A model generated the notes under the pieces. The model was not told the DNA's origin, did not search any database, and was given only the letters and a program-made list of their open reading frames with translations. From an uncultured delta proteobacterium (lineage in GTDB: Bacteria; Myxococcota_A; Polyangia; Fen-1088), in the NCBI GenBank assembly GCA_963796685.1, contig CAWCMR010000008.1:576001-640000 (forward strand): 64,000 bases of DNA, given 5' to 3'. The position numbers and the translations under genes were made by a program. Positions 47,743 through 62,531 of the stretch are shown piece by piece (position 1 is the first letter of the stretch; each line of letters starts with the position of its first letter).

Positions 47743-49041
47743 TTAGTTGACTGCTGCGCAGAACTGCTTGGTCGTGAGACCGTCGCCGCCGGACCAGATC
47801 TCGAAGCCGGCGAAGACGAGACTCAAGTACATGCTGCTGGTGACGCCGTACTTGTTGCTTACGGCATCCTTGATGAAGTTGTTCAGGTCGTATGACAGCG
47901 AGTCGAGGGGCGTGCTGCTGACATAGGAGATGCACGGCGGATCGGTGCTGCTATCGACCCACACGTCCCACGTGCCAGGCACGCCGCCGACCGTCATACC
48001 CGGATGGTTCGGCGACGCGCCCGTAGCTGAGCTGGACCCACCCCGGGGCTGGCGATCGGACGGCTTGTACAGCCACACCATCAAATAGGCCCCGCCCTGC
48101 CCCGGCGAATTGGACATGGTACCGAGCTTGGCACTGGTCGCCGTGAACCACACGTCGTAGGTCGCGTTGAAGTTCGAGGTGTCGAGCGTGCTGGCGTTGG
48201 TGGAGAAGATCGTGGGAACCGATTTGATGGCCGACACCTGCATCGGCAGGTTGCTCCCCACCGTGGTGTGGTTCTGGTACGAGCCGATGAAGATCGTGGG
48301 GAACCCCATGGGATTGCCGTCGCTGGCCGGCACCGAAGTACCTTGCGAATTGCCCACGGTCATCGACAGCCCGGTGATGTCCACGGTCTGGCCACCGAAC
48401 TTGTGCCACCAGTTGGTCATCGTGTGGTAGGTCTTGGTCGAGTTGGTTACCGTGATCTCGCCGTCCTGGTACTGCTTGGTGAAGGACAGGGGGGTGGTCG
48501 AGGTGTCGGTGCAGTCGACGGATGCCGTGCTTCCGCCGGTCGCTGTAGTCCCGCCCGCGCCCGCCGAGCCGCCGCTGCCAGCCGCGCCGCTGCCGGCAGC
48601 ACCGCCGCCAGCCGTGCCGCCTGTTTGACCGTTGCCAGCCGAGCCCCCCGTCATGCTCGTGCCGCCGCTGCCGGCCGTGCCACCGCTACCGGCCGTGCCG
48701 CTTGAACCGGCCGAGCCCGTCTTGCCGCCGCTACCGGTCACCCCGCCCGAGTTGCCGCCGCTGGCCGTGGTGCCACCCGTGACAGTGGCCCCACCCGAGC
48801 CCGAGCTACCCCCGCTGGCCGTGGTGCCGCCCGCGCTGGTCGTCCCGCCTGACGCGGTCGTTCCACCCGTGGCCGTTGTTCCACCATTTCCGGTCGTCCC
48901 CCCCGAGCCGCCCTGCCCGCCAGACGCTGCCGACCCACCCGATCCCGAGGTAACCCCCTGGTTATTGACGTTGCACGCGAGAATCGCGCCGGAAAAGACG
49001 ACAAGCATCGCGGCCGTAACGAGTGGTCTCTCGAATATCAT
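47743..49041 (-). CDS. GH12-family glycoside hydrolase lipoprotein with Gly/Thr linker
   Basis: Lipobox ILAC, GGTT repeats, NATYDVWF, YLMVWL, AGFEIW. AAGGAAGGA RBS. Confidence 0.85.
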   Translation of the reverse strand: MIFERPLVTAAMLVVFSGAILACNVNNQGVTSGSGGSAASGGQGGSGGTTGNGGTTATGGTTASGGTTSAGGTTASGGSSGSGGATVTGGTTASGGNSGGVTGSGGKTGSAGSSGTAGSGGTAGSGGTSMTGGSAGNGQTGGTAGGGAAGSGAAGSGGSAGAGGTTATGGSTASVDCTDTSTTPLSFTKQYQDGEITVTNSTKTYHTMTNWWHKFGGQTVDITGLSMTVGNSQGTSVPASDGNPMGFPTIFIGSYQNHTTVGSNLPMQVSAIKSVPTIFSTNASTLDTSNFNATYDVWFTATSAKLGTMSNSPGQGGAYLMVWLYKPSDRQPRGGSSSATGASPNHPGMTVGGVPGTWDVWVDSSTDPPCISYVSSTPLDSLSYDLNNFIKDAVSNKYGVTSSMYLSLVFAGFEIWSGGDGLTTKQFCAAVN

Positions 49042-49361
49042 GGGATGTCCTTCCTTGAACTAGCCAGGGATCCCTCGCTGCTGTCCCGTCATCAGCCTCA
49101 GGTGTTAGAACACGCACGAAGCCGCTTTTGAGCAGATGCAGTTGTCTGGACCAAAGGTGAGCAGCAAGAAATGGCAACTCGGCGCCACTTCTAGCTTGTG
49201 GTTTCCAGATCGTCAGTGCTCTACTTCGTCGCTAGCTAGGCTAGTTTCCGAGTTCTTCTGCATTCCCGACGATACTGTCGCCTGGCCGGCCTCAACGAGG
49301 CGGTCGCGAATTCGACCAATCCCTGAGATCCGTGACTCGGCCTGAATGCCCCGGAGGAGAT

Positions 49362-50870
49362 ATGAAGGTCCAAACTGCGCTAGGAATCCTGGTTGCCGTG
49401 CTTTTCGTCGCGCCAGGCTGCGGAAGCGATAACCCGCAGGCCCAGTCGGGTTCTGGCGGCCGGGGCGTAGGCGGAGGCGCTGGCAACGGCTCCGGAGGCA
49501 GCGGCGTGGGCGGAAACGCCGGCAACAACGTGGGCGGAGGCGCCGGCAGCGGCTCGGGGGGCAGCGCGGGCAACGGCGCGGGGGGCATCGCCTTGGGTGG
49601 TAGCGGCGGCGGTTCGGGCGGCGTCAAGACTGGAGGCACGACGGGCAGCGGCGGCAATGCGACAGGCGGGGCGGGCGGCAACTCGATGGGCGGCGGCGGC
49701 AATCCCGATTCCGCCGCTGGAGGTACCGGCGCTGGTGGTTCGACCGCCCGGGATGGCGGACGAGACACGATTCCAGGTGTTGGTGGCGGCGGGGAAAATG
49801 GCGGCGGGGCGACTGGCACGGGTGGTTCCACGGGCGCGGGCGGCTCCACGAATACCGACGCCGGCAGCGGCGGTCAGAATATCTGCACGTTCGCCAGCGG
49901 TCTGAATGTCGCCTGGGTTCAGTTTGCCGGTGACGTTCCGAATACCAGCTCGAACATCGCGACCTTCAACACGATCTTCAAGAACACCTACGACAGTGGT
50001 GGACGTATTGTGCGTTGGTGGTTCCACACCAATGGCACTGTCACACCGGGTTATCAAACAGATGGAACAGCCCAGAAGCTCCCACAGTCGCACATCGACG
50101 GTCTCAAGGCGATCTTGTCCGCTGCGAACACCAACAAGCTGGGTGTCGTCGTCAGCCTTTGGTCGTTCGACATGCTGCAGGGACCGGGAAGCGGCGAAAA
50201 CATTCCCAGCGGTACTCTAACCAACAATCAGAAGCTCATCACCCAGGACACGAATCGCCAAGCGTACATCGACAACTACCTCACGCCACTGGTCACGGCC
50301 CTCAAGGGGACCCCTGGGCTTTATGCCTACGAAATTTTCAACGAGCCGGAGGGAATGTCGACGGAGAACGGTTGGACGGCGAACAGCTCGAACCAGGGAC
50401 TCTCGGTTCCTGAGAGCGCCATTCAGAAGACGGTGAACTGGTTTGCCGCCGCCATCCACGCCGCGGATCCAAGAACACCGGTTACCAATGGCTCCCAAAC
50501 CATGGACTACCGTACCCTGTACACCGACAGTGCCTTGACCAGCGCGGGCGGAAAATCGACCGGCACGCTCGATTTTTACGAGGTTCACTACTACCAAGTG
50601 AATGGCTCCAACAACGATGTTTTTGCCAACCCGAGGTCGCACTGGGCCATGTCGGACAAGAAGCTTGCGATCGGGGAGTTCGCCGCTTACTCGCAGGACA
50701 CGTCGCCGGTGGCCGTCAACGACTGCTACACCTACCTCTACAGCAATGGCTACGACGGCGCATGGGCCTGGTCGTACACGGAGGGCAACTCGAACTACGC
50801 CTGGCCATCCATGCAGACACCGATGAAGAATCTCCTTGCGGCCCACGCCGACGTGGGAACTTGTCCATAA
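49362..50870 (+). CDS. GH5-like (clan GH-A) glycoside hydrolase lipoprotein with Gly-rich linker
   Basis: GGAGGAG RBS, lipobox APGC, YEIFNEPEG, EVHYY, IGEF, GAWAWSY. Confidence 0.85.
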   Translation: MKVQTALGILVAVLFVAPGCGSDNPQAQSGSGGRGVGGGAGNGSGGSGVGGNAGNNVGGGAGSGSGGSAGNGAGGIALGGSGGGSGGVKTGGTTGSGGNATGGAGGNSMGGGGNPDSAAGGTGAGGSTARDGGRDTIPGVGGGGENGGGATGTGGSTGAGGSTNTDAGSGGQNICTFASGLNVAWVQFAGDVPNTSSNIATFNTIFKNTYDSGGRIVRWWFHTNGTVTPGYQTDGTAQKLPQSHIDGLKAILSAANTNKLGVVVSLWSFDMLQGPGSGENIPSGTLTNNQKLITQDTNRQAYIDNYLTPLVTALKGTPGLYAYEIFNEPEGMSTENGWTANSSNQGLSVPESAIQKTVNWFAAAIHAADPRTPVTNGSQTMDYRTLYTDSALTSAGGKSTGTLDFYEVHYYQVNGSNNDVFANPRSHWAMSDKKLAIGEFAAYSQDTSPVAVNDCYTYLYSNGYDGAWAWSYTEGNSNYAWPSMQTPMKNLLAAHADVGTCP

Positions 50871-50880
50871 GGCGACGGCA

Positions 50881-51459
50881 ATGTTTCGCCGCTACATCAT
50901 CTGGTCGCTTCCCCTGGTCGCGGTAGCGCTCATCTGGCTGCTGCGAACCCAGGCGGCTACCCGCGAGACGACCAAGGCCAAGGATGAACCTTCTGCCGCG
51001 GCTCCGCCTGATCTGCCAACAGCACGACCGCCATTGCTCGCTCGGCCCGCGGATGCAGCGCCGACATCCGGGCCACCTACCGCAGCTCCGGCGCAGAGCG
51101 GATCAGGAAAAGCCAGTACTGTCCATGCGCTCTCGCCCGCGGACCAACTTGCCGAAGCGAGCTTGATGTCCCGTCTGCGCGCGGCCAAAGCGAGCAACCC
51201 AAAGTTGGCCATCGAGCTCGCTCGACAAGGAAACAAGCGTTTCCCGGACAGCGCCCTGGCACCTGAACGGTATTCGATCTTGGTTCACGCCTTGGCCGAC
51301 ACGGAGCAACGCCGCGAGGCACGCGGCGAGGCGGAATTCATGGTGAACCACTATCCCGACTCCGACTGGGTCAGGGAGATCGAACGATTTTCGGGCGCGC
51401 ACCGCCACCGGAATATCCGCCTGACAGACGCTGGAACGATCGAGTACTACGATCCCTAG
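50881..51459 (+). CDS. Membrane-anchored protein with C-terminal TPR-like helices
   Basis: N-terminal TM, Pro/Ala linker, repeated RFPDS/HYPDS helical motifs. Confidence 0.65.
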   Translation: MFRRYIIWSLPLVAVALIWLLRTQAATRETTKAKDEPSAAAPPDLPTARPPLLARPADAAPTSGPPTAAPAQSGSGKASTVHALSPADQLAEASLMSRLRAAKASNPKLAIELARQGNKRFPDSALAPERYSILVHALADTEQRREARGEAEFMVNHYPDSDWVREIERFSGAHRHRNIRLTDAGTIEYYDP

Positions 51460-51799
51460 CCTTGGGGCTTGCCCAGAGCGCCCACACGGCTTTGCGACGC
51501 GGTAGAATCCCGGAATCCCGTTTTCGTTCCCCGTCACCGAGGTGTCACGACCCAGGAGTGCCATCGAGCAGGTACTCTAGTGCTTGGCCAGGTCGCGTCA
51601 AGAGGACAGAAATGGGAACCCTCGACGATCCGCCGCGGTGGTAAGCGCAACGGTGCGGCAGAGCGAAAGGCAAGGTCAAGCCCCATGGATGACAGCATTT
51701 CGAAGTAGGCAGGTTCTGCCGCGTGCGAGATCCGCAGTCGGGTGCGAGGTGCAATGGGCGCCCCCGAACATACCCGCCGCGTTTGCTGCCTCGTAGGGC

Positions 51800-51827
51800 A
51801 CAAGTTTTCCCTCGGATGTGCCGATAG
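51800..51827 (+). promoter_or_regulatory. Putative sigma28 (FliA/SigD-type) promoter
   Basis: (A)CAAG-N15-GCCGATAG (51801-51804 and 51820-51827) versus consensus TAAA-N15-GCCGATAA. Ends 28 nt before the GTG at 51856. Confidence 0.55.
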
Positions 51828-51855
51828 CCCCGTGTCAGGTGCGGAGCGAGACCCC

Positions 51856-54800
51856 GTGACCATCACTTCGATATCGTCGTTCACTCCACAACAGATCCGG
51901 AGCCTCTCCGCGGTCGACCTGCGCAGCGTCTCCACGACGGATATCGCAACCCTTTCGACCACCCAGGTGCAGGCGCTCACGCCGGTCGAAATCACCGAGT
52001 TGACGCCCGAGCAGGTCGCCAATCTGACGGCCATCGAATGGCTCGCGTTTTCGCCCCCGCAACTCTCCGCCTTGACCCCATCGCAGGTCGCGGTCGTCAG
52101 CACGGGCAAGGTCACGGCGTTAACCACCACGCAGATTCAAGGCCTGCGGAGCACCGACATCGCCGAGCTCCTGCCCACGCAGATCGCGGCCCTCGCCGAG
52201 ACCGAGCTCGAAGCCCTGACCAGCGCCCAGATCAAGGGTATCAAGGCGACCCAGCTCGCGGCCTTGACCACCACGCAACTCGGCTACCTCTCCTCGACCC
52301 AGCTCGCCGGAATCACGGCCTTCGCCATCCCCGGCATGACCGACGAGCAGTGGTCCGCGCTGACCACCACCCAATTCGCCGGCTTGCCAGGCGGCTCTAT
52401 CAGCGCGCTCGATGCCGAGACGCTCGGCAAGCTGAGCAATACCCTCCTGGCCGCGCTCTCGACGGCGCAACTGAAGGGCTTGACCAGCACCAACGTCGGC
52501 GCCCTGGGTCTGCCCCAGCTGGCGGCCCTGAGCGAAACCCAGCTCGCCGGATTGACTTCCGCGGCTCTGCGCGGGCTGACCAACGACCAGGTCGTCGCGC
52601 TGACTACCACGCAGCTCGGCGACATGACGTCGTCGCAGCTCGCGGCGCTTACCACCACCGTGATCGCGGCCCTCACCCCGACCCAAATCGCGGGCCTCGC
52701 GACCACCCAGGTCCAAAGCCTCAGCGGCGCGAGTGTAGGGTTGCTGAGCATCGACCAGTTCGCGGCCTTCGTGGGGACGCAGTTGGCGGCGCTGACCACC
52801 ACCCAGCTGCGCGCCTTGAGCAGCACCGATCTCGGCAACCTGACCACCGGCGAGCTGGGCGCCCTGAGCGCCACACAACTGGGGGCATTCAATATGCTAG
52901 CGGTCCAAGGCCTGTCCGCGGACCAGCTGGCATCGCTGACGACCACCCAGACCGCCGGCCTCGGCGCCGGGCAACTTCGAGGGCTCTCCGTCGAGGCCGC
53001 CCAGGGCTTGACGACGTCACAGCTGGCCGCTCTGAGCACCACGCAGATCGTCGGGCTGACCAGCACCCGCATCGGCGCCCTGACATCCTCGGAGATCGCG
53101 ATCTTCAGCTCCACGCAGCTGTCCGCCCTGGTCGCGACCCAACTCAAGGGTCTCACGGCAGACCAGCTCGGCGAGCTGGCCGAGACGCAGCTGGCAGGAC
53201 TGTTGCCGGCGCAGCTTTCGGCCCTCACGACCACGACGGTCGCCGGATTCACCACCTCCCAGCTGACCTCGCTGACGACGACCCAGATCGCCGGTCTCAG
53301 CTCGGCTGGACTGAGCGCCCTGGATGCCGACCAATTCGCGGCGCTGGCCACATCACAATTGGCCGCCGTCACCAGCGCGCAGATGCGCGGCCTCACCAGC
53401 ACCGACATCGGCGATCTCGCGACCACGTCCCTGTGGTCGCTCAGCCCGACACAACTTTCCGCTATCACGAGCAGCGCCGTCGCGGGAATGAGCGAAGACC
53501 AACTCGCGGGCTTCAGCACGACGCAGATCCGGGCGCTCGGCTCCTCGCTTGTCGCCGCGCTGGCCGACACCCAGATCGGCGCCTTGACCACCACGCAAGT
53601 AGCCGCGCTGACGACCACGCAGTTGCGAGGCATCGGAAGCACGAACAGCGACCAGATAGCGGCTCTCGGCACCGACCAGGTCGCGGCCTTGTCGTCCATC
53701 CAGGTGGCCGCCATCACCACCACCGGGATTTCAGGCCTGACGGCGGACCAATGGGCCACCCTCACCACTACCCAAATTGCACGACTCGGCTCCGCAAGCG
53801 TGGGCGCCATATCCTCGGATCAGATGGCGTGGCTGCCCGAGACGCTGCTTGCGGCGCTCGCCAGCACCCAGATAGTCGGGCTGACGGCGACTGGCCTCGC
53901 CGCGCTCGACCTCGACCAGCTTGCCGTGCTCGCCAGCACCCAGCTCGCGGCGCTGGCCACCGGCTCGATCAGGGGACTCACCGACGAGCAGATTGCCGGA
54001 CTTGCGACCTCGCAGATCGCCGGGCTCACCGGCGCGCAACTTGGCGCGCTGACCATGACGGCCGTCGGAGCCCTGACCACGGACCAGTTGGCAGGCCTCA
54101 CCAACACGCAGATCAAAGGATTTGCTGGCGCCGGGGTCAGCGCACTGAGCCCCCAGCAGCTAGCAGCGTTCAGCACCTCGCAGCTGGCGGCACTGTCCAG
54201 CACCCAGCTCCGAAGCCTCACCAGCACCAACGTGAATGACCTGACCGCGGCCGAGCTCGCTGCGCTCGCGAGCACCCAGCTTGGCGCCCTCAGCACGAGC
54301 GCGATCGCCGGCTTGTCCCCGGAACAGCTCACTTGGATGACCACGACCCAGATGCTGGGCTTGACCTCGGCGCAGCTTGGGGCGCTTACGGTCGATACCG
54401 CTTCCGCGCTCGCGCCGACCCAGCCTGGCTGTGTTGACCGCTACCCAGGTCACGGGCCTGAGCAGGACGAGCATCGCAAGCCTGACCGAGGCCGACCTTG
54501 CCACCCTGAACGTGCGGCAGATCGCGGCCCTGACCACGACACAGGTCGCGGCCCTCGATCCCGACCAGCTCTCCCAATTCACGACCACCCAGGTGGCCGC
54601 CTTGAGCGCAACGCAGCTCGCCGGCCTCACTAGCGTTGCCGCCTCGGGCTTCGCCACGACCCAGCTGGCAGCCCTGACCACCGCCCAGCTGCGTGGGCTG
54701 ACTGGGATGGCGCTAAGCGCGCTGGATGCGGACCAGTTTGGAGCCTTGACCACGACGCAGATGGCCGCCCTGACGACCACGCAGGTCCGCGGCCTTGCCA

Positions 54801-57800
54801 GCGCCGATCTGGGCGAGCTCAGCACATCGGCCCTGGCAGCACTGACCTCCACGCAGGTGGCCTCGCTGCAACCAAACGCGTTCGCGGGGATGAGCGAGGA
54901 CCAGGTGTCCAGCCTGACCACGACCCAGGTGCGAGCCTTGACCGCGGCGGTCGTCGGAGCGCTGGCCAACACGCAGTTTGCAGCGCTGAGCACCGGCCAA
55001 TTGACGGTTTTGACCACGTCGCAGATGCGAAGCCTGGCTGCCACGAACCTCAGCTTGCTGACGGCCAGTGATCTCGCCGCGCTGACCTCGACCCAGCTGG
55101 CCGCTTTGACGACCGGTCAGATCCAAAGCCTGAGCGACGAGCAGTTCGCGCTTCTCACCTCGACCCAGATGGCCAGGATGAGCGCGACTCAGCTCAGCGC
55201 CCTTTCCACCACCGTGGTGGCGGCCCTGAGCACCACCCAGCTGGCGGCCTTGAGCACGAACCAGCTACGCGGTCTGAGCGCCGACGCCGTGAGCGATCTG
55301 AGCGAGGACCAGATGGCGGCCCTGGCGACCACACAACTGGCGTGGCTCACCACCACCCAGATCGCCGGCTTGACCGGCACCGACGTCTCCGAGCTGTCCA
55401 CCACCGAGCTTTCGACCCTGACCTCCGCCCAGGTGGGCGCCATCAGCGGCACGGCCTTGTCCGGGCTCAGCGCCGGCCAAGTGGCGCTGCTCACCACCTC
55501 GCAGGTGCGCGGGTTGACCGCGACCTCGGTCGCCGCGCTGGCGGACACGCAACTGAACGCGCTCGCCAGCACCCAGATCGCAGCCTTGTCGTCGAGCGCG
55601 ATGGCAGGGCTGACGTCGCAAGAGGCGGCGGAGCTGAGCACCACCCAGATCGCTGCCTTGCTGCCGGCGCAGATGGCCGCGCTGACCAGGACGGCGGTGG
55701 GTTCTCTCGACAGCACCCAGGTGTCCACGCTGTCGACCACGCAGATCGCCGCTCTGACCTCCGGACAAATCGGCGCGCTGAGCGCCACGGCGGTGGCGAG
55801 CCTGCAGACGACGCAAGTGGCGTCCATGAGCGCCATGCAAATGGTCGGGTTCACGGCCACGGGGCTCGGGTCGATGACCGCGAGCAACCTCGCCGGGTTG
55901 AGCAGCACGCAACTGCATGCCCTCACGGCTACCCAGATTGCCGGACTTTCGGGCGATACCGTGGCCGCCCTGGGCGTCACGGGCTTGTCCGCGTTGAGCG
56001 CCTCGCAGCTGTCCGCACTGAGCACCACCGGAGCGCAGGGCCTGAGCCAGGCGCAACTCCGGTCCCTGTCGACCAACCAGCTCAAAGGATTGACCGCCTC
56101 CGCGGTCGCGTCGTTGGCGTCCACGCAGATGGCCGCCCTGCTCACGACCCAGCTTTCGGGCTTGAGCACCACGGCGATCGCGGGCCTGAGCTCGCAGCAG
56201 GTGGCGGCCTTGAGCAGCGACCAGTTCGCGGCCTTTGGAACGACGCAGCTGGCGGCCTTGTCCGCATCGGGAGCACGGGGCCTGACCGGGGATCAATTGG
56301 GCGGTCTGGACAGCCCCAGGCTGTTCGCCCTCAAGGCATCCCAGCTCGCGGCGCTTTCCACCGCCCAGATGGGCGACCTGGCCGACACCCAACTGGCGGC
56401 CCTGTCCACCACGGGAATCAAGGGCCTCGTGCGTACGCAATTGGGGGCACTGTCGCTGACCCAACTCGGGGGCCTGACCCCGAGCCAGATCGCGGCCCTG
56501 TCGGGCGACGCGCTTTCCGGGCTGACCACCACCGAGGTGGCGGCGCTCACGGGGACCCAGCTCGAGGGGGTGAGCCCGGCCCAACTCGGACTCTTCACGG
56601 ACAGCCAGATTCTCGCCCTGACGCCGACCCAAGTCGGCCAGCTTTCCAGCACGCAGGTCGCAGGCCTGAGGGCATCGCAGATTGGCGATCTCAGCGCGGG
56701 TCAGATCGGCGCCCTCTCCATGACCCAGCTTCTCGCCCTCTCCACCAGCACGCTGGGCGGGCTGACCTCCACGCAAGTCGCCACCCTCGCCACCACGCAG
56801 CTCGCTGGGCTGGGAGAGGCCCAGATCAAAGCCCTGTCGACCACGGCCATCGGTGGGCTCACGAGCAGCGAGCTGCCGGTGTTGACCTCCAGCCAGGTTG
56901 GCGCGCTCACCCTGGCCCAGATCGCCGCCATGTCCGAAAAACAAATCGCCGGGTTGGCAACCACGCAGCTGGCGGCCCTGGGCAACGGCGCCATCGCCGG
57001 ACTCGCCGACACGCAGATTTCTGCCATGTCCACCGACCAGCTCACCAGCTTGTCCAACGCACAAATCGGCTCCCTGACGAACGCCGCGGTAGCCGGCCTC
57101 GGCACCGACGACCTGGCGGCCTTTGCCGACAGCCAGGTGGCCGCCCTTTCCCTGGGCGGTGTGGCGTCCCTTGGCGCGAGCCAGATGGCAGCCCTCAGAT
57201 CGGACCAGCTGGCGTCACTGTCCACGTCCCAGATAGCGTCGTTATCGACGACCGCGGTCGCGGCCATCGCCACGAGCTCCATCGCCAATCTGGCAGCGAG
57301 CCAGTTCGCGGCACTCACCGGCGAGCAATTCGGAGCGCTGACCGTGACCCAGATCGCCTCGTTCTCGACCGATCAAATCGCCCATCTCACGCCGGACCAG
57401 ATCGCCGGCATGGTCGACACCCAGGTGGCTGCGCTGGCCACCACCCAGCTTGCCGCGCTCTCACAAGGGCAGCTGGTCTTGCTCTCGGTGGTGGGCGTGG
57501 AGGGCTTCTCACCCGGCCAGATCGCGACGCTGACGACCAGCCAAATCGCGGCCCTTTCCGGCGACCAGCTGCAAAGCTTCAACCAAGAACAGCTGGCCGC
57601 TTTGACAGCGGGGCAGATCGGCGCCATGTCCGCCGATCAGCTCAACGGTCTCGCCGACACCGAAGTTGCGCTGCTGTCGAATACGCAACTGGGCGGCCTT
57701 ACGGAGACCCAGATGGCGGCGCTGGATACCGCGCAGGTGGGCAGCCTCACCAGCAACCAGCTGGAGGGGTTGACCCAGGGACAGCTTCTGGCGCTGAGCA

Positions 57801-60453
57801 CAGCGCAGATCGCCGCGCTCGGCGGCACGGCCATTGCCGGGATGACCACGGACAAGCTGGCGCTGCTGACCACGCGGCAGCTCGCGAGCCTGACGCCCGA
57901 TCAGTTCGGCGCGCTCGCCACGACGCAGATCGGGCTCTCGATGCGACGCAGCTCGGGGTGTTGACCCCCGCGGAGCTGGGTGGATTGACCGATACCCAGA
58001 TAGGCACCCTGGCAGCGACCCAGCTGGCGGCTCTCAACGGCACCCAGATGGCCGCCTTGCCGGTATCGGCGCTGGATGGCTTGACCGCGACGCAGATCGG
58101 TGGACTGTCGCAGACCCAGCTCAACCAACTGACGGGGGCGCAGCTGGCGGCCCTGAGCACGTCGCAGCTCGCGGTGTTGACGCCGACCCAAGTCGCTTTT
58201 CTGAGCACGACCCAGATACGCGGCTTGACCACCACGGTGGTCGCCGGGCTGACCACCAGCCAGCTCGACGCCCTTGCGCTCACGCAGTTGGCCGAGCTGA
58301 GTACAGGGCAAATCGCCGCCTTGGTCAGCACCGAGGTGGGGGCGCTCTTGGCCACCCAGCTGGCGGCCCTGAGCACGACCCAGATCGCCGCTCTCGGCAC
58401 CTCGGCCATCGTGGGACTGACCGCGGGCTCCCTGGCCGCCCTGAGCACGAAGCAGCTGGCAGCACTTTCGACGACCCAGATGGCAGCTTTGACGACGGCG
58501 CAGGTGGCAGCGCTGTCGACAAGTCAGCTACGTTCTCTTGCCGCCACCCAGATCAACGGGCTCACGTCCACCGCCGTAACGACCATGACCACCACGCAGA
58601 TCGCCGCACTCACCACCACCCAGTTGGCCGGATTGTCCTCCTCGGGCGTGAAGGGCCTCACCCCCGACCAGATCGACGCGCTGTCGTCGAGCCAATTCGC
58701 GGCGTTGACCGCCTCGGAGCTCGGCGCTCTGACCACGACGCAAGTGGGCCTGTTGCTGACAGCGCAAGTCGTCGCCCTTTCCACCACTCAGTTGAGAGGC
58801 TTGCCGGCAACCGCCATCGCCGCCTTGAGCGGCACGCAGCTCGACGCCCTCACCACGTCGCAGGTGGTGGCCTTGACGGCCGGACAGATGGCCGGGCTCA
58901 CGTCGAGCCAGCTTGCAGCGCTTGCCGCCACCCAGCTCGTGGCGCTGACGTCGACCCAGGTCGCGGGGCTGTCCACGACCGGGCTGGTCGGGTTGACGAC
59001 GGATGAGCTGAATGAGCTATCCACCAAACAACTGGCGGCAATCACGGCCGGACAGATGGCGGCGTTGACGTCGTCTCAAGTGGCCGGGATGTCTACGACC
59101 CAGATCTCGGCTCTCTCGCGCATTCAAATGGGCGCCCTCTCAGGCAGCGCGGTGGGGGCCCTCACCTCGACCCAAATCGGCACGCTGACCACCACCCAAG
59201 TTGCCGCCCTGTCCTCCACCGGCGCCACCGGCCTGACCCCGGACCAAGTCGCCGATCTCTCGCCCGACCAGTTGGCGGCCCTCACGTCGACTGCGCTGGC
59301 CGGTTTGTCCTCGACGACCATCGCTGGTTTGGGCTCAGGCGTTCTCGCCGCCCTGACCACCACCCAGTTCACGAGCTTGGGGGCGAGCGGCATCTCCGCC
59401 CTCACCACCAGCGTCCTGCAGGATCTGTCCACGACCCAAGTGGGACTCTTGACCGCCACCGAGATCGCCGGGCTGACGTCCAGTCAGATTGCGGCCTTGA
59501 CCACCGGTCAGATCGGGGCGCTGTCGACCTCGCAGATGTCCGCCATGTCCGCCAGTGGCATCAACGGCCTCACCCCGACCCAGGTTGCCGGACTCGCCGC
59601 GACCCAGCTGGCGGCCCTGTCCGCGACCCAGATGGCCGGTCTGTCCGACGCAGCGGTGTCCGGCCTGACCGGAGATGAATTCTCGGGCCTGACCACGACG
59701 CAGTTCAAGAGCTTGTCGGCAACCGGGGTGGCAGGGTTGTCGGCCGGCCAAATCGCGAGCCTCACCACTTCGCAGCTCGCCCTGCTCAGCGTCACGGAGC
59801 TGAGCGGGCTGACCAGCGCACAGGTCGGCGCCTTGACGCCCGCCCAATTCGCCACGCTGGCCACGAGCCAGATCGGTGCCTTGTCGGAGGAGGGCATCAC
59901 CGGAATGAGCCCGGCGCAGTTTGCGGCGATGAGCTCGACGCAATTCGCGGCCCTGACGTCCGACCAGCTAGCCGCGCTGACCACCGCCGAAGTGGGCATG
60001 TTGTCCACGTCCCAGATAGCCGCGTTGACCCCCGACCAGATTGGCGGTTTGGAGCGAATGCAACTTCGCTCCCTTTCCACGGCGCAGCTGGCCGCGTTGA
60101 CCACGACGCAGGTGGCGGCACTGGACGAGGTGCAGATCTCCAGCCTCACGGCGACCGAATTCCAGAACCTGTCGCCGGCCCAACTGGGAGCGCTAGGGCC
60201 GTGGCAGATGGCGGCCCTGACGGCCACCCAACTCGGCGCATTCGCGCCCACCCAGATAGCCGCGCTGGCGGCGACGCAGTTCAGCGAAATCACGACCACG
60301 ACCATCGCCGCGCTCTCGGTGACGACCTTATCGTCCTTGACGACCGAGGAGCTCGAAGCGCTCGATGCCACCCAAATCGACGCACTCACGGCAACCCAGT
60401 TGGCCAGCATGACGCCGGAACAATTGGCGGCCCTGAGTGACGCCGAAGTTTAG
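51856..60453 (+). CDS. Giant (~2,865 aa) Ser/Thr-rich octapeptide-repeat protein (compensating frameshifts near 54424 and 57933)
   Basis: Three ORFs continue the same xxxQ[LIV][AG][AG]L repeat in register. One extra C at CAGCCTGGCT and one missing G at ATCGGGCTCTC. GTG start with GGAG RBS. Confidence 0.85.
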
Positions 60454-60467
60454 CGAGAAGACAGCCG

Positions 60468-62531
60468 ATGGCGACCGACCTGTTCACGACTGCTATCATC
60501 CGATCGACCGCACGCAGCTTCAGCGTCGCCGACCTGATCCGCACGGCGGAGATGCTGAAGCAGGAGGCCCAGGCCGACCTGGTCGAGGTGCTGTATGCGA
60601 CCTGGGTCCAGCACAACCAGGACAACCCGCTGCTTTATGCGGTTCTATTCAACCACTCGGTCGTTCTCTCGGATGGCGGCAAGCTGGAGGCTGCTCGCGC
60701 GTGTCTGGAGAAAGCGTTGAAGCTCAATCCCGAGTTCATCCCGGCTCACATCAACCTGGGACGACTCTACGAAAGGCTGGGAAACGTCGCCCCGGCTCTC
60801 GTGCAATGGAGCGTCGCTCTGGCACGCATGGCGCCGGTGAACGGAGCCTCGGTGGGGTACAAGACGACTGCCCTCAATCAAAGCGGACGCGCGCTGGAAG
60901 CCGCCAATCAAGACGAGGCGGCGGAGGAGATGCTGCGACAGAGCCTCGAGCTGGACTCGCACCAAAGCGAGGTCATTCAGCACGTCGTCGCCCTTCGACA
61001 ACGGCAGTGCAAATGGCCAACCGTCCTGCCTTCGGAAAGAGTGTCGGCCAGGGCGCAGGTGGAGGGCATGTCGCCGCTGTCGATGGCCGCGCATACCGAC
61101 GATCCGATCATGCAGCTGGCCGCGGCGTGCAAGTACAACCGAGACGACGTCGGCACGCCCAAGGAGGCACACGTGGAGTGGCCGGCCGCAATCCCCGGCT
61201 CGGGCCGACTGAGGATCGGCTATCTGTCGTCCGATCTGCGCGAGCACGCGGTTGGGTTCCTGATGACCGAGGTGCTGGGTCTGCACGACCGGGAGGCGGT
61301 GGAGGTGTTCGCCTACTATTGTGGACCGGAGGCCAAGGACAAATTGCACGCGCATTTCCGCGAGACCGCGGACCACTTCAAGGACATCACGTCGCTCGGC
61401 GATGAAGCCGCCGCACGCCAGATGGTGGAGGACGGCATTCAGATCCTGGTCGACCTCAACGGTTACACCCGCGAGGCGCGCTTGAAGGTCGTGGCGCGTC
61501 GGCCGGCGCCGGTGATCGTCAACTGGCTGGGATTTCCCGGCACCATGGCCAGCCCCTACCACCACTACATCATTGCCGACGACTGGATCATCCCGCCGTC
61601 CCACGAGGGGTACTTCTCGGAGAAGGTGCTGAGGCTGCCGTGCTACCAGCCAAGCAGTCGCAAGCGCGAAGTCGCGGCCGCGACGCCGTCCCGCCGCGAC
61701 GTGGGTCTGCCGGCCGAGGGCATGGTCTATTGTTGCTTCAACGGCGCCCACAAGATCAATCGCTTCACCTTCAACCGATGGCTCATGATCATCGCCCGTG
61801 TGCCGGGCAGCGTGCTGTGGCTTCTGGGAGGCTCGGAGGCGGCCAATCGACGCTTGCAGGACTACGCCGCCGAGCGCGGCGTGGCCAAAGAACGGATCGT
61901 GTTCGGCGACAAGCTGCCGAATCCGGCGCACCTTGCGCGCTACGCCCTGGCGGATCTATTTCTCGATACGACCCCATACGGAGCCCACACCACCGCCTCC
62001 GATGCCCTGTGGATGGGCTTGCCGGTGCTGACGTTCAGCGGACGCTCGTTCGCCTCGCGGGTGTGCGGCAGCCTGGTGCGCGCGGCGGGAACGCCCGAGA
62101 TGGCGTGCAGCACGGCCGAGGAGCTGGTCGAACGCGCGGTCGAGCTCGGCAGCGAGCCCGGCAAGCTGGCCACGGTAAGGGACAAGCTGCGTGCCCAGCG
62201 CGACACGTGCGTTCTGTTCGACATGCCGCGCTTGGTTCGCCGCTTGGAAGATCTGTTCCGGCAGATGTGGCACGAGCACCAGAGCGGTCAGCTGCCGCAG
62301 CCGGATCTCGCGAACCTTGAAGTCTATCTAGAGGTGGGGAGCGAGGTCGACTACGACGATGTCGAAGTGCAGACCATCGCCGACTACGAGGGCTGGTGGC
62401 GGGCGCGGCTTGCCCGGCGGCATCACCTTCGCCCCATCCCCCACGACCGGCGCCTGGTACAGCCGTCGGAACAGTTTCGCCCTGGGGAATGTTCGCGCCA
62501 CCCGTATCCGGCGGACCACGGGAACCCCTGA
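60468..62531 (+). CDS. TPR-containing GT41 O-GlcNAc-transferase/SPINDLY-like protein glycosyltransferase
   Basis: TPRs, RIGYLSSDLREHAVG, LVDLNGYT, NWLGFPGT, CFNGAHKI, DLFLDTTPYGAHTTASDALWMGLPVLT, SRVCGSL. Confidence 0.93.
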   Translation: MATDLFTTAIIRSTARSFSVADLIRTAEMLKQEAQADLVEVLYATWVQHNQDNPLLYAVLFNHSVVLSDGGKLEAARACLEKALKLNPEFIPAHINLGRLYERLGNVAPALVQWSVALARMAPVNGASVGYKTTALNQSGRALEAANQDEAAEEMLRQSLELDSHQSEVIQHVVALRQRQCKWPTVLPSERVSARAQVEGMSPLSMAAHTDDPIMQLAAACKYNRDDVGTPKEAHVEWPAAIPGSGRLRIGYLSSDLREHAVGFLMTEVLGLHDREAVEVFAYYCGPEAKDKLHAHFRETADHFKDITSLGDEAAARQMVEDGIQILVDLNGYTREARLKVVARRPAPVIVNWLGFPGTMASPYHHYIIADDWIIPPSHEGYFSEKVLRLPCYQPSSRKREVAAATPSRRDVGLPAEGMVYCCFNGAHKINRFTFNRWLMIIARVPGSVLWLLGGSEAANRRLQDYAAERGVAKERIVFGDKLPNPAHLARYALADLFLDTTPYGAHTTASDALWMGLPVLTFSGRSFASRVCGSLVRAAGTPEMACSTAEELVERAVELGSEPGKLATVRDKLRAQRDTCVLFDMPRLVRRLEDLFRQMWHEHQSGQLPQPDLANLEVYLEVGSEVDYDDVEVQTIADYEGWWRARLARRHHLRPIPHDRRLVQPSEQFRPGECSRHPYPADHGNP

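Follow-up and report, generated by a model that had tools for sequence, protein, structure and literature searches.

A giant ALTTAQ-repeat protein encoded beside an OGT-like TPR-GT41 glycosyltransferase: a conserved gene pair and candidate cytoplasmic O-glycosylation module

The window analyzed here, a 64,000-nt stretch from the genome of an uncultured delta proteobacterium (positions 576001-640000 of contig CAWCMR010000008.1, termed C8 below, in a 7.3-Mb assembly of 26 contigs rated 88.6% complete), carries a giant gene for a protein of about 2,865 residues made of ALTTAQ octapeptide repeats and, directly downstream, a gene for an OGT-like enzyme with tetratricopeptide repeats (TPR) and a glycosyltransferase domain of family GT41. 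The two genes are kept together in loci from several phyla, and an enzyme-substrate pair is the parsimonious reading of this arrangement. As a kind the system is known, namely a dedicated cytoplasmic glycosyltransferase together with a giant exported repeat protein. However, the pairing of an OGT-type TPR-GT41 enzyme with an all-ALTTAQ solenoid appears to be undescribed in the literature searched, and so do its breadth over at least five phyla, its alternative-sigma control and the predicted fold; no paper on the ALTTAQ repeat family or on the ALTTAQ-GT41 pair was found in that literature. The account that we favour, and that we hold to be somewhat likelier true than false, is that of a giant solenoid fibre to which a dedicated OGT-like enzyme would attach O-linked sugars in the cytoplasm, and which would be produced along with the motility programme and released without a Sec signal.

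The giant gene and the GT41 gene form a conserved pair

The giant coding region extends on the forward strand from a GTG at 51856 to a TAG at 60451-60453 (51856-60453, about 2,865 codons), and the GT41 gene begins 14 nt further on, with no terminator-like site in the gap. As assembled, the giant gene is read from frame 1 into frame 2 and back into frame 1; the read-through with an X at both breaks has 2,867 residues, or about 2,865 without the junction overlap. The GTG is the likely start; the orthologues begin 2-8 residues ahead of the same conserved I-(T/S)-S-I-S-S-L motif. A previous inspection of the letters of the window (the sequence-only reading) had described a giant repeat gene with a promoter match ahead of it and a TPR-GT41 gene close behind, and all three are present where it located them. 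We regard the two genes as a two-gene operon and a conserved, self-contained module, a view that shares the slightly better than even confidence of the whole account to which it belongs. Between 50500 and 64000 no Rfam match was obtained at E values up to 0.1.

A first scan with the GT41 protein gave four relatives. In two Solidesulfovibrio loci single ALTTAQ frames of 2,758 aa and roughly 3,050 aa lie directly upstream of the GT41 gene, and in the genus of the window 3 of the 12 other genomes contain a GT41 orthologue (67-68% identity), preceded in two of them by an uninterrupted 3,215-aa ALTTAQ frame, while the third locus is cut by a contig end. A scan with a six-orthologue alignment then gave 357 relatives, the best 80 of which (54-71% identity) were kept, making 81 loci in all; 77 were assessable, the other four having less than 450 nt upstream. 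These best 80 belong to Myxococcota, Desulfovibrionaceae, Verrucomicrobiota, Acidobacteriota and many Alphaproteobacteria, the last including Azospirillum, Magnetospirillum, Phaeospirillum, Rhodoplanes, Acetobacteraceae, Caulobacter and Asticcacaulis. An ALTTAQ giant gene stood beside the GT41 gene in 75 of the 77 assessable loci. In 72 it was a same-strand frame, at most 3,327 aa long, whose end lies 10-296 nt ahead of GT41, as called by a regular-expression criterion of our own that was confirmed with Pfam for the window and locus L091 and by eye for L011; in three, all from Asticcacaulis, it was a divergent gene of 2,195-2,199 aa (one with a Pfam E value of 3.6e-195). The last two loci had no ALTTAQ gene within 10 kb of GT41. 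The adjacency on which the sequence-only reading relied is thus conserved.

The giant proteins were also compared with one another. Their last 350 residues align in register over 48 orthologues with 22 extra columns (38-59% identity) and their first 350 residues at 32-44% identity; both termini are characteristic, the N-terminal motif is conserved across phyla, and the last 100 residues or so are the best conserved part of the protein. Because both ends align in register and the termini are characteristic, the giant proteins are, by these alignments, true orthologues and not merely alike in their repeats. A quick tree of 66 orthologue rows broadly tracks taxonomy with a few rows misplaced, and no direction of transfer was drawn from it; it leaves out 12 rows whose coordinates ran into a stop (L022, L036, L037, L045, L047, L049, L050, L061, L064, L065, L081 and L089) and five further loci (L009, L053, L070, L087 and L094). 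A conserved third gene for a chaperone, transporter or regulator was sought and rejected, since the largest flank clusters cover just 10 of 76 loci; across seven loci compared, only alternative frames of GT41 itself recur.

The repeat protein is predicted to be a folded solenoid

A register-tracking script divided the giant protein into 357 octad units with the consensus L-(T/S)-(T/S/A)-(T/S)-Q-(L/I/V)-A-(A/G), in which 354 steps are exactly 8 residues long, two are 9 and one is 11; the length and the roughly 350 units of the sequence-only reading are borne out. In agreement with this register, the identity autocorrelation is 0.32 at lag 8 and 0.06-0.11 at lags that are not multiples of 8. The repeats begin directly at the N-terminus. 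Ser and Thr make up about 27% of the protein at set positions of the octad (74, 49 and 60% Ser+Thr at positions 2, 3 and 4), within a composition of 17.9% A, 16.7% L, 15.8% T, 11.1% S, 9.2% Q and 8.1% G. Cys is absent, the protein is strongly acidic (148 D+E versus 54 K+R), and the highest 19-residue Kyte-Doolittle mean (1.64, borderline) falls inside an ordinary repeat. There are just five N-x-S/T sequons and no GGxGxD calcium-binding (RTX) motif in the 2,867 residues, in which Pfam also found no PF00353.

No recognisable domain had been seen in this protein from the letters alone. The repeat is in fact Pfam family PF20080 (ALTTAQ_rpt, cut-off 26.4 bits), which matches all three pieces of the gene far over its cut-off in 81 stretches; in a scan of the genome, the 67 PF20080 matches all lie within the giant gene. 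Protein Atlas returned only clusters named 'ALTTAQ repeat domain-containing protein', and NCBIfam offered no curated family at cut-off for the giant protein, the GT41 protein or the epimerase/dehydratase described below. PF20080 also scores over its cut-off in the control genome of Caulobacter vibrioides, which may hold an ALTTAQ protein.

The idea of a mucin-like chain did not survive structure prediction. AlphaFold2 models of the two ends, built with orthologue alignments, are confidently folded, with a mean predicted local distance difference test score (pLDDT) of 94.3, a predicted TM-score (pTM) of 0.83 and 41 short helices for the N-terminal 350 residues, and a pLDDT of 93.0, a pTM of 0.78 and 43 short helices for the C-terminal 350. 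Each octad forms one helix of 4-6 residues, the first at about residue 6, and the S/T-x-x-Q with which each helix starts resembles a capping box, so the octad Ser/Thr would be structural as well as potential acceptors. The giant protein is therefore predicted to be a folded, rigid rod of short helices and not a mucin-like coil; as a rough guess, its length would be on the hundred-nanometre scale. Searches with the model gave mesothelin as the best Foldseek match (E 6e-5, but TM-scores of 0.19-0.38), and a designed repeat protein (Z 7.4) and mesothelin (Z 6.2) as the best VIA-align matches, with none of 48,161 chains reaching Z 8. The likeness to mesothelin and armadillo alpha-solenoids lies in the general architecture only, a superhelix of short helices, since their repeat has about 40 residues and three helices as compared with the 8-residue, one-helix unit of the giant protein. 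The solenoid, itself predicted with high confidence, has no close solved relative.

A collapsed or misassembled repeat was considered and rejected, given that the DNA repeats are old and divergent (Tandem Repeats Finder detects only short 24-nt arrays with 62-83% matches) and that the N- and C-terminal 350 residues align position by position with the orthologues.

To place the repeat among other proteins, 5.8 billion sequences were searched with the C-terminal part of a Solidesulfovibrio orthologue and 8,000 candidates were scored. Among these, 193 proteins were recognized, many of which combine PF20080 with domains of giant secreted proteins; their source names include filamentous hemagglutinin family, trimeric autotransporter adhesin, VCBS, FG-GAP and G8, and by our own count about 22 of the 120 proteins listed carry PF05860 and about 13 carry PF00353, where the names that we attach to domain accessions are in part presumed. 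By these combinations, the ALTTAQ array serves extracellular proteins as a stalk. Such stalks in giant two-partner secretion (TPS), autotransporter and RTX proteins have the repeat family in common with the cassette protein but stand next to recognizable secretion or adhesion domains, whereas the cassette protein consists of ALTTAQ alone, begins and ends with conserved units of its own and is paired with a GT41. Several of the proteins listed likewise carry PF20080 alone.

The partner enzyme is of the OGT type

The GT41 protein matches domain PF13844 with an E value of 7.7e-78 (262.5 bits, cut-off 25), and TPR_8, TPR_2, TPR_12, TPR_11 and TPR_1 all exceed their cut-offs in its N-terminal TPR part. 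Among solved structures it comes closest to human OGT (E 9.7e-89) and XcOGT of Xanthomonas (E 6.6e-83, alignment spanning residues 81-587), with the plant enzyme SPINDLY (E 2e-52) more distant. The stretches SSDLREH, FNGAHK and HTTASDALW align to matching stretches of human OGT and XcOGT, and the positions SSDxxxH, FNxxxK and HTTxxDxLW are identical to both and invariant in six orthologues. In OGT these stretches (the His of SSDFGNH, the Lys of FNQLYK and HTT..D) hold the catalytic residues and those that bind UDP and the acceptor. Judged by its sequence, the product has an intact OGT-type catalytic domain.

In 10 loci an NDP-sugar epimerase/dehydratase gene (PF01370/PF16363), 69-81% identical between loci, directly abuts the GT41 gene. 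Its carriers are Caulobacterales and some other Alphaproteobacteria, among NCBIfam models dTDP-glucose 4,6-dehydratase and UDP-xylose synthase come nearest, without any reaching its cut-off, and its position hints at the donor sugar in those genomes.

A second TPR-GT41 paralogue of 684 aa, 32% identical, sits outside the window, in the flagellar locus of the same contig, between motAB and a methyltransferase/fliD/flagellin group. In nine other genomes of the family such a GT41 match lies on the contig of the flagellin gene, 1.2-9.4 kb away in eight and about 13 kb away in one. This paralogue is likely a flagellin glycosyltransferase.

In another reading, the giant protein would stay in the cytoplasm as a scaffold, ruler or polar landmark, while GT41 modifies other proteins such as flagellin or pilin or uses it as a platform and not as a substrate. 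Its want of a recognizable secretion signal of known type and its predicted rigid folded rod would suit such a role, and bacterial OGT homologues with other substrates have been described, PilA in Synechococcus elongatus being one, while HmwC reportedly modifies multiple proteins (Nat Commun 2024). However, the near-obligate pairing (75/77) and the very short gaps point to a dedicated partnership, a separate GT41 paralogue already stands beside the flagellin gene in the genus of the window, and ALTTAQ arrays elsewhere belong to secreted proteins. We consider a cytoplasmic role quite improbable. The giant protein as the GT41 substrate, the O-linkage, the sugar, the export and the function are all inferred. 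On this reading the pair probably offers a natural substrate for a bacterial OGT homologue.

Comparison with known systems

A natural substrate of a bacterial OGT homologue, such as the sequence-only reading expected the repeat protein to supply, has already been published: the Ogt of S. elongatus is reported to be needed for glycosylation of the exported fibre subunit PilA. The accessible texts of the papers on this enzyme and on XcOGT of Xanthomonas campestris describe no giant repeat protein as genomic partner. Both enzymes have the same TPR plus GT41 architecture as the cassette enzyme.

Serine-rich repeat proteins (SRRPs) of Gram-positive bacteria receive O-linked sugars in the cytoplasm from enzymes whose genes lie nearby, and are exported afterwards to form surface fibres. 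They come with a signal peptide, an accessory Sec system and an LPXTG anchor, and their serine-rich regions are for the most part disordered. In the cassette, by contrast, the repeats are predicted to be folded, the enzyme is a GT41 and the hosts are Gram-negative. The SRRPs served by GtfA/GtfB are reported to be very large Ser/Thr-rich repeat proteins with dedicated O-glycosylation (PMC5866549, PMC7462905).

The HMW1C-HMW1 and EtpC-EtpA systems resemble the cassette in that a GT41-family enzyme is encoded next to a giant repeat or adhesin protein; the adjacent enzyme is reported to glycosylate the giant secreted adhesin at many sites in the cytoplasm before export (PMC3983070, PMC3012730). 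HMW1C enzymes, however, have no TPRs, attach N-linked hexose to N-x-S/T and go with Sec/TPS export, whereas the cassette enzyme is of the TPR/OGT type and its partner has five sequons, no TPS domain, no Sec signal and no adjacent TpsB gene. An HMW1-type N-linked system was rejected: the N-glycosyltransferase model NF049992 gives the GT41 protein 24.5 bits against a cut-off of 1000, PF05860 (TPS) is missing from the partner, and the scarcity of sequons speaks against it.

FlmG of Caulobacter crescentus shares the combination of TPRs and a glycosyltransferase. It is described as having an N-terminal TPR part that binds flagellins and a C-terminal GT-B domain that O-glycosylates their Ser/Thr before their signal-peptide-independent export (PMC7591256). 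There FlmG is expressed with the flagellar programme and transfers pseudaminic acid to flagellins of about 30 kDa, and in those passages it is not described as a GT41 (PMC7591256). The cassette partner differs in being an ALTTAQ solenoid of about 290 kDa encoded immediately upstream, and the better counterpart of FlmG is the second GT41 paralogue in the flagellar locus.

Promoters and a possible flagellar link

The giant gene is preceded by a sigma28-like promoter, a strong and well-placed match (CAAG-N15-GCCGATAG) whose -35 core lies at 51801-51804 and whose -10 box ends 28 nt before the GTG. It fits the TAAA/CAAG-N15-GCCGATAA type of consensus at a suitable distance from the start, and no sigma70-type match was found on the forward strand upstream of the giant gene. 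In the 64-kb window AAG-N15-GCCGATA is present a single time, where 0.03 occurrences are expected, and 3 of 100 shuffles had one or more matches; only 19 GCCGATA(A/G) sites with a -35-like element exist genome-wide. Boxes of the same architecture precede fliD and a methyltransferase gene in the flagellar locus. Two same-genus orthologues have TCAAGG-N14-CACGATTT, in which only the CGAT core is kept, and these were not counted as support.

Many other loci have sigma54-type boxes instead. Such boxes scoring at least 9/12 were found in 19 of the 46 giant-gene upstream regions; the reverse strands of the 46 gave none, and shuffled regions gave 1.4 on average and 5 at most. At a score of at least 10 there were seven, compared with none on the reverse strand and 0.12 in shuffles. 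Perfect TGGCAC-N5-TTGC boxes stand ahead of the giant gene in loci L073 and L098, and the TGGCGT-N5-TTGC box of Solidesulfovibrio aerotolerans scores 8/12, below the counting threshold. Control by sigma28 in one lineage and by sigma54 in others is the behaviour of flagellar genes. An upstream block with a TTGCA-N4-TGCAA-type inverted repeat, possibly a regulator site, is common to the two same-genus orthologues, whose genomes are close (GT41 90% identical), so its conservation means little.

The genome has the sigma factor and the flagellar genes on which the sequence-only reading depended. FliA gave two matches with model TIGR02479 (230.1 and 205.5 bits, cut-off 189.6), and a flagellar region on the contig of the window contains FliI, MotAB, the second TPR-GT41, the methyltransferase, FliD, flagellin and rod/hook genes. 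Flagellin was found in all 50 cassette genomes tested (49 over cut-off); in the genus of the window it is present in all four carriers and in 8 of 13 genomes overall. In a 121-genome sample of another family, in which 99 have flagellin, it was present in all seven genomes with a GT41 orthologue (six of them counted on the orthologue alone). Overall, all 60 tested genomes with a GT41 orthologue have flagellin. In two loci, from an Asticcacaulis strain and an alphaproteobacterial bin, the gene directly upstream of the giant one is flgE (PF07559, PF06429, PF22692), which gives the order flgE / giant / GT41 / epimerase, and in a third locus a FliI gene lies about 5.7 kb downstream. Taken together, these data make a flagellar or motility link of the cassette suggestive only. 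Of the earlier interpretation, the conserved pair, the sigma28 match and the FliA and flagellar genes stood, and the missing domain and the mucin-like nature did not.

Proposed mode of action and routes of export

In the account that we favour, the all-ALTTAQ protein of about 2,865 aa would fold into a long, rigid solenoid to which every octad contributes one short capped helix, with the Ser/Thr of positions 2-4 as the helix-capping and turn residues. The TPR arm would bind the giant protein, probably while its chain is unfolded or nascent or else at the conserved termini, and the GT41 domain would move sugar from a nucleotide sugar, most likely a UDP-sugar, to Ser/Thr hydroxyls in the cytoplasm. 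The glycoprotein would then be exported independently of a Sec signal peptide and would form a surface or extracellular fibre of the motile cell. Its transcription would follow the motility programme, by way of sigma28 in this genome and for the most part by way of sigma54 in other lineages.

Several observations weigh against this account. An OGT-type active site binds extended peptides, which makes a folded solenoid ill suited as an acceptor. A long disordered N-terminus, usual in flagellar export substrates, is lacking in the modelled giant protein, whose solenoid begins at about residue 6 with only about five residues before the first modelled helix. As to transcription, the flagellin gene of the genome itself shows no sigma28 or sigma54 consensus by eye, and a relaxed sigma28 pattern shows no enrichment across the flagellar region (2 matches versus about 1.5 expected, 170 genome-wide). 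A search for GCCGATA boxes upstream of the other giant genes, which had been proposed with the promoter, showed the canonical box to be peculiar to this genome and absent from the other 45 of the 46 regions. Several of the 19 sigma54 matches come from close relatives with a common box, and sigma54 governs many non-flagellar regulons. The flagellin co-occurrence is suggestive only, because the background is high (23 of 41 relatives and 99 of 121 genomes of the other family, i.e. 56-82%) and related genomes are not independent. A flagellar gene lies in the flanks of just 3 of 81 loci, and the giant gene as assembled here is broken twice.

As for export, the flagellar hints and the conservation of the N-terminus speak for the flagellar apparatus. 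A type I-like route is favoured by the C-terminus, which is conserved and acidic-hydrophobic, and by the occurrence of ALTTAQ arrays in RTX and TPS proteins. In the first case the glycosylated protein would be a late flagellar-regulon product that leaves the cell by the flagellar type III apparatus and makes up a filament, sheath or shield associated with the flagellum. This would be in keeping with the sigma28 box directly before the gene, the lack of a Sec-type N-terminus, the extreme N-terminal motif conserved across phyla, the flgE neighbours in two loci and FliI within 6 kb in one, flagellin in 60 of 60 genomes, and the GT41 paralogue beside fliD and flagellin. It also has a precedent in the TPR-glycosyltransferase that modifies flagellins in the cytoplasm before export (PMC7591256). 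However, the model leaves almost no free N-terminal segment, the cassette stands outside flagellar clusters in 78 of 81 loci, and the co-occurrence with flagellin does not discriminate against so high a background. Moreover, we know of no flagellar export substrate like the product of an 8.6-kb gene, about ten times the length of flagellin. Flagellar export is thus unlikely in our view. A bolder form, in which the protein would be an unrecognised appendage, an O-glycosylated rod with a new 8-residue-per-turn solenoid, driven by a flagellar sigma factor (sigma28 or sigma54 according to lineage) and exported via the flagellar type III apparatus, we rate as decidedly doubtful; if true, the protein would be the first giant substrate of flagellar export that is not axial, and it would establish what the TPR-OGT enzymes of bacteria did ancestrally.

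In the second case a giant surface adhesin or fibre would be exported by a type I (ATP-binding cassette/membrane fusion protein/TolC; ABC/MFP/TolC) or other non-flagellar route, with the conserved C-terminus as signal and with sigma28 or sigma54 only coupling its expression to the planktonic or motile phase. The last 100 or so residues are indeed the best conserved, at the very end of many orthologues an acidic or polar residue precedes small or hydrophobic ones (..DAEV, ..DALV, ..DAMV), the protein is acidic, and other giant proteins, of the RTX, TPS and autotransporter types, contain ALTTAQ arrays. Against this, the resemblance of the C-terminus to type I signals is one that we presume, GGxGxD calcium-binding repeats are lacking, and no ABC/MFP pair is conserved beside the cassette; ABC_tran matches occur in the flanks of 10 of 76 loci, and the two checked were not exporter-like, one having a TOBE domain. 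We give this route little credence as well.

Bacterial OGT homologues have been crystallised and have served as structural models for years, and for most of them the role in the native cell is hardly understood. In the present case the members of one clade accompany a single partner gene at one locus after another, which provides a concrete and easily testable substrate hypothesis, and cultured carriers exist in Solidesulfovibrio aerotolerans, Asticcacaulis solisilvae, Caulobacter hibisci, Azospirillum soli and Rhodoplanes tepidamans. The giant protein is among the largest of the carrier genomes, with about 350 octads kept in register across phyla, and if the motility link holds it would be an unknown surface structure of swimming bacteria.

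The two frame breaks in the giant gene

Both breaks are single-base length changes in C or G runs (Table 1). Over the 6 kb past the first one the repeat register is perfect, the proper frames have no stop, and the fraction of G+C at third codon positions (GC3) stays at 0.82-0.86, as in all three pieces; piece 3 includes the conserved C-terminal 100 residues or so. A single open giant frame is present in 70 of the 72 same-strand orthologues of the regular-expression set. The two breaks are probably assembly errors and not real lesions, since they are homopolymer-length changes without downstream decay and nearly all orthologues are intact. Programmed frameshifting and an alternative genetic code were rejected in view of the same single-base changes and of the single frame in 70 of 72 orthologues. 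The two split orthologues, L055 in three frames and L075 in two, come from one long-contig metagenome bin and one isolate assembly.

If both frameshifts were real, the gene would be a recent pseudogene that yields only an N-terminal fragment of about 925 aa, or nothing. The assembly as given does show two breaks and is not riddled with indels, rpoC (one 1,421-aa frame) and the main dnaE (1,209 aa) being intact, which neither proves nor excludes local indel errors; the cassette is moreover patchy in the genus (3 of 12 other genomes) and hence dispensable. However, the type of change, the 6 kb of stop-free, in-register sequence of unchanged GC3, the intact orthologues, the occurrence of another split gene in a long-contig metagenome bin and the nature of the source (an 88.6% complete assembly in 26 contigs) all argue for an intact gene, and a pseudogene is a minor possibility that we take seriously without expecting it.

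Table 1. Positions of the gene pair and of related features. Positions without prefix are those of the window; C8, contig of the window; L0xx, loci with a GT41 gene and their flanks.
Feature	Position	Strand	Remarks
Sigma28 (FliA)-type promoter match	51800-51827	+	-35-like ACAAG (51800-51804), 15-nt spacer, -10 GCCGATAG (51820-51827)
Ribosome-binding site and likely start	51843-51858	+	GGAG 51843-51846, GTG 51856-51858
Giant ALTTAQ gene, piece 1	51856-54424	+	Frame 1; PF20080 E 2.5e-107, 350.7 bits, 22 stretches; GC3 0.82
Break 1 (frame 1 to 2)	54424-54425	+	Extra C in CC pair; register runs on ..APTQ / LAVLTATQ.. if one C is skipped
Giant ALTTAQ gene, piece 2	54425-57934	+	Frame 2; PF20080 E 4.3e-141, 458.7 bits, 32 stretches; GC3 0.86
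Break 2 (frame 2 to 1)	57932-57934	+	G run of three, four needed; register runs on ..TTQIG / ALDATQLG..
Giant ALTTAQ gene, piece 3	57934-60453	+	Frame 1; PF20080 E 1e-123, 403.1 bits, 27 stretches; TAG 60451-60453
TPR-GT41 (OGT-like) gene	60468-62531	+	687 aa; ATG 60468, 14 nt past TAG of giant gene
Second TPR-GT41 paralogue	C8 78901-80955	-	L020:8902-10956
Sigma28-like box	C8 81024-81050	+	TCAAGC-N13-GCCGATAA; precedes small methyltransferase gene
Sigma28-like box	C8 83172-83145	-	TTAAGG-N14-GTCGATAT; ends about 20 nt before fliD
Sigma54-type -24/-12 box	L011:1440-1460		Ahead of giant gene
Upstream block with inverted repeat	L016:17255-17330	-	Common to L016 and L018
Upstream block with inverted repeat	L018:12150-12215	-	Common to L016 and L018
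flgE beside giant gene	L092:790-2172	-	Divergent; Asticcacaulis strain
flgE beside giant gene	L099:979-2235	+	Co-directional; alphaproteobacterial bin
Epimerase/dehydratase abutting GT41	L084:11974-12915
Epimerase/dehydratase abutting GT41	L092:11950-12945
Epimerase/dehydratase abutting GT41	L099:11884-12933
GH12 gene	47743-49041	-	E 6.7e-21
GH5 cellulase-like gene	49332-50870	+	E 7.8e-10

Surroundings of the cassette

Just upstream of the cassette the window contains a GH12 gene and a GH5 cellulase-like gene. The G+C content drops to 0.608 in 50001-52000, compared with 0.66-0.68 in the surroundings.

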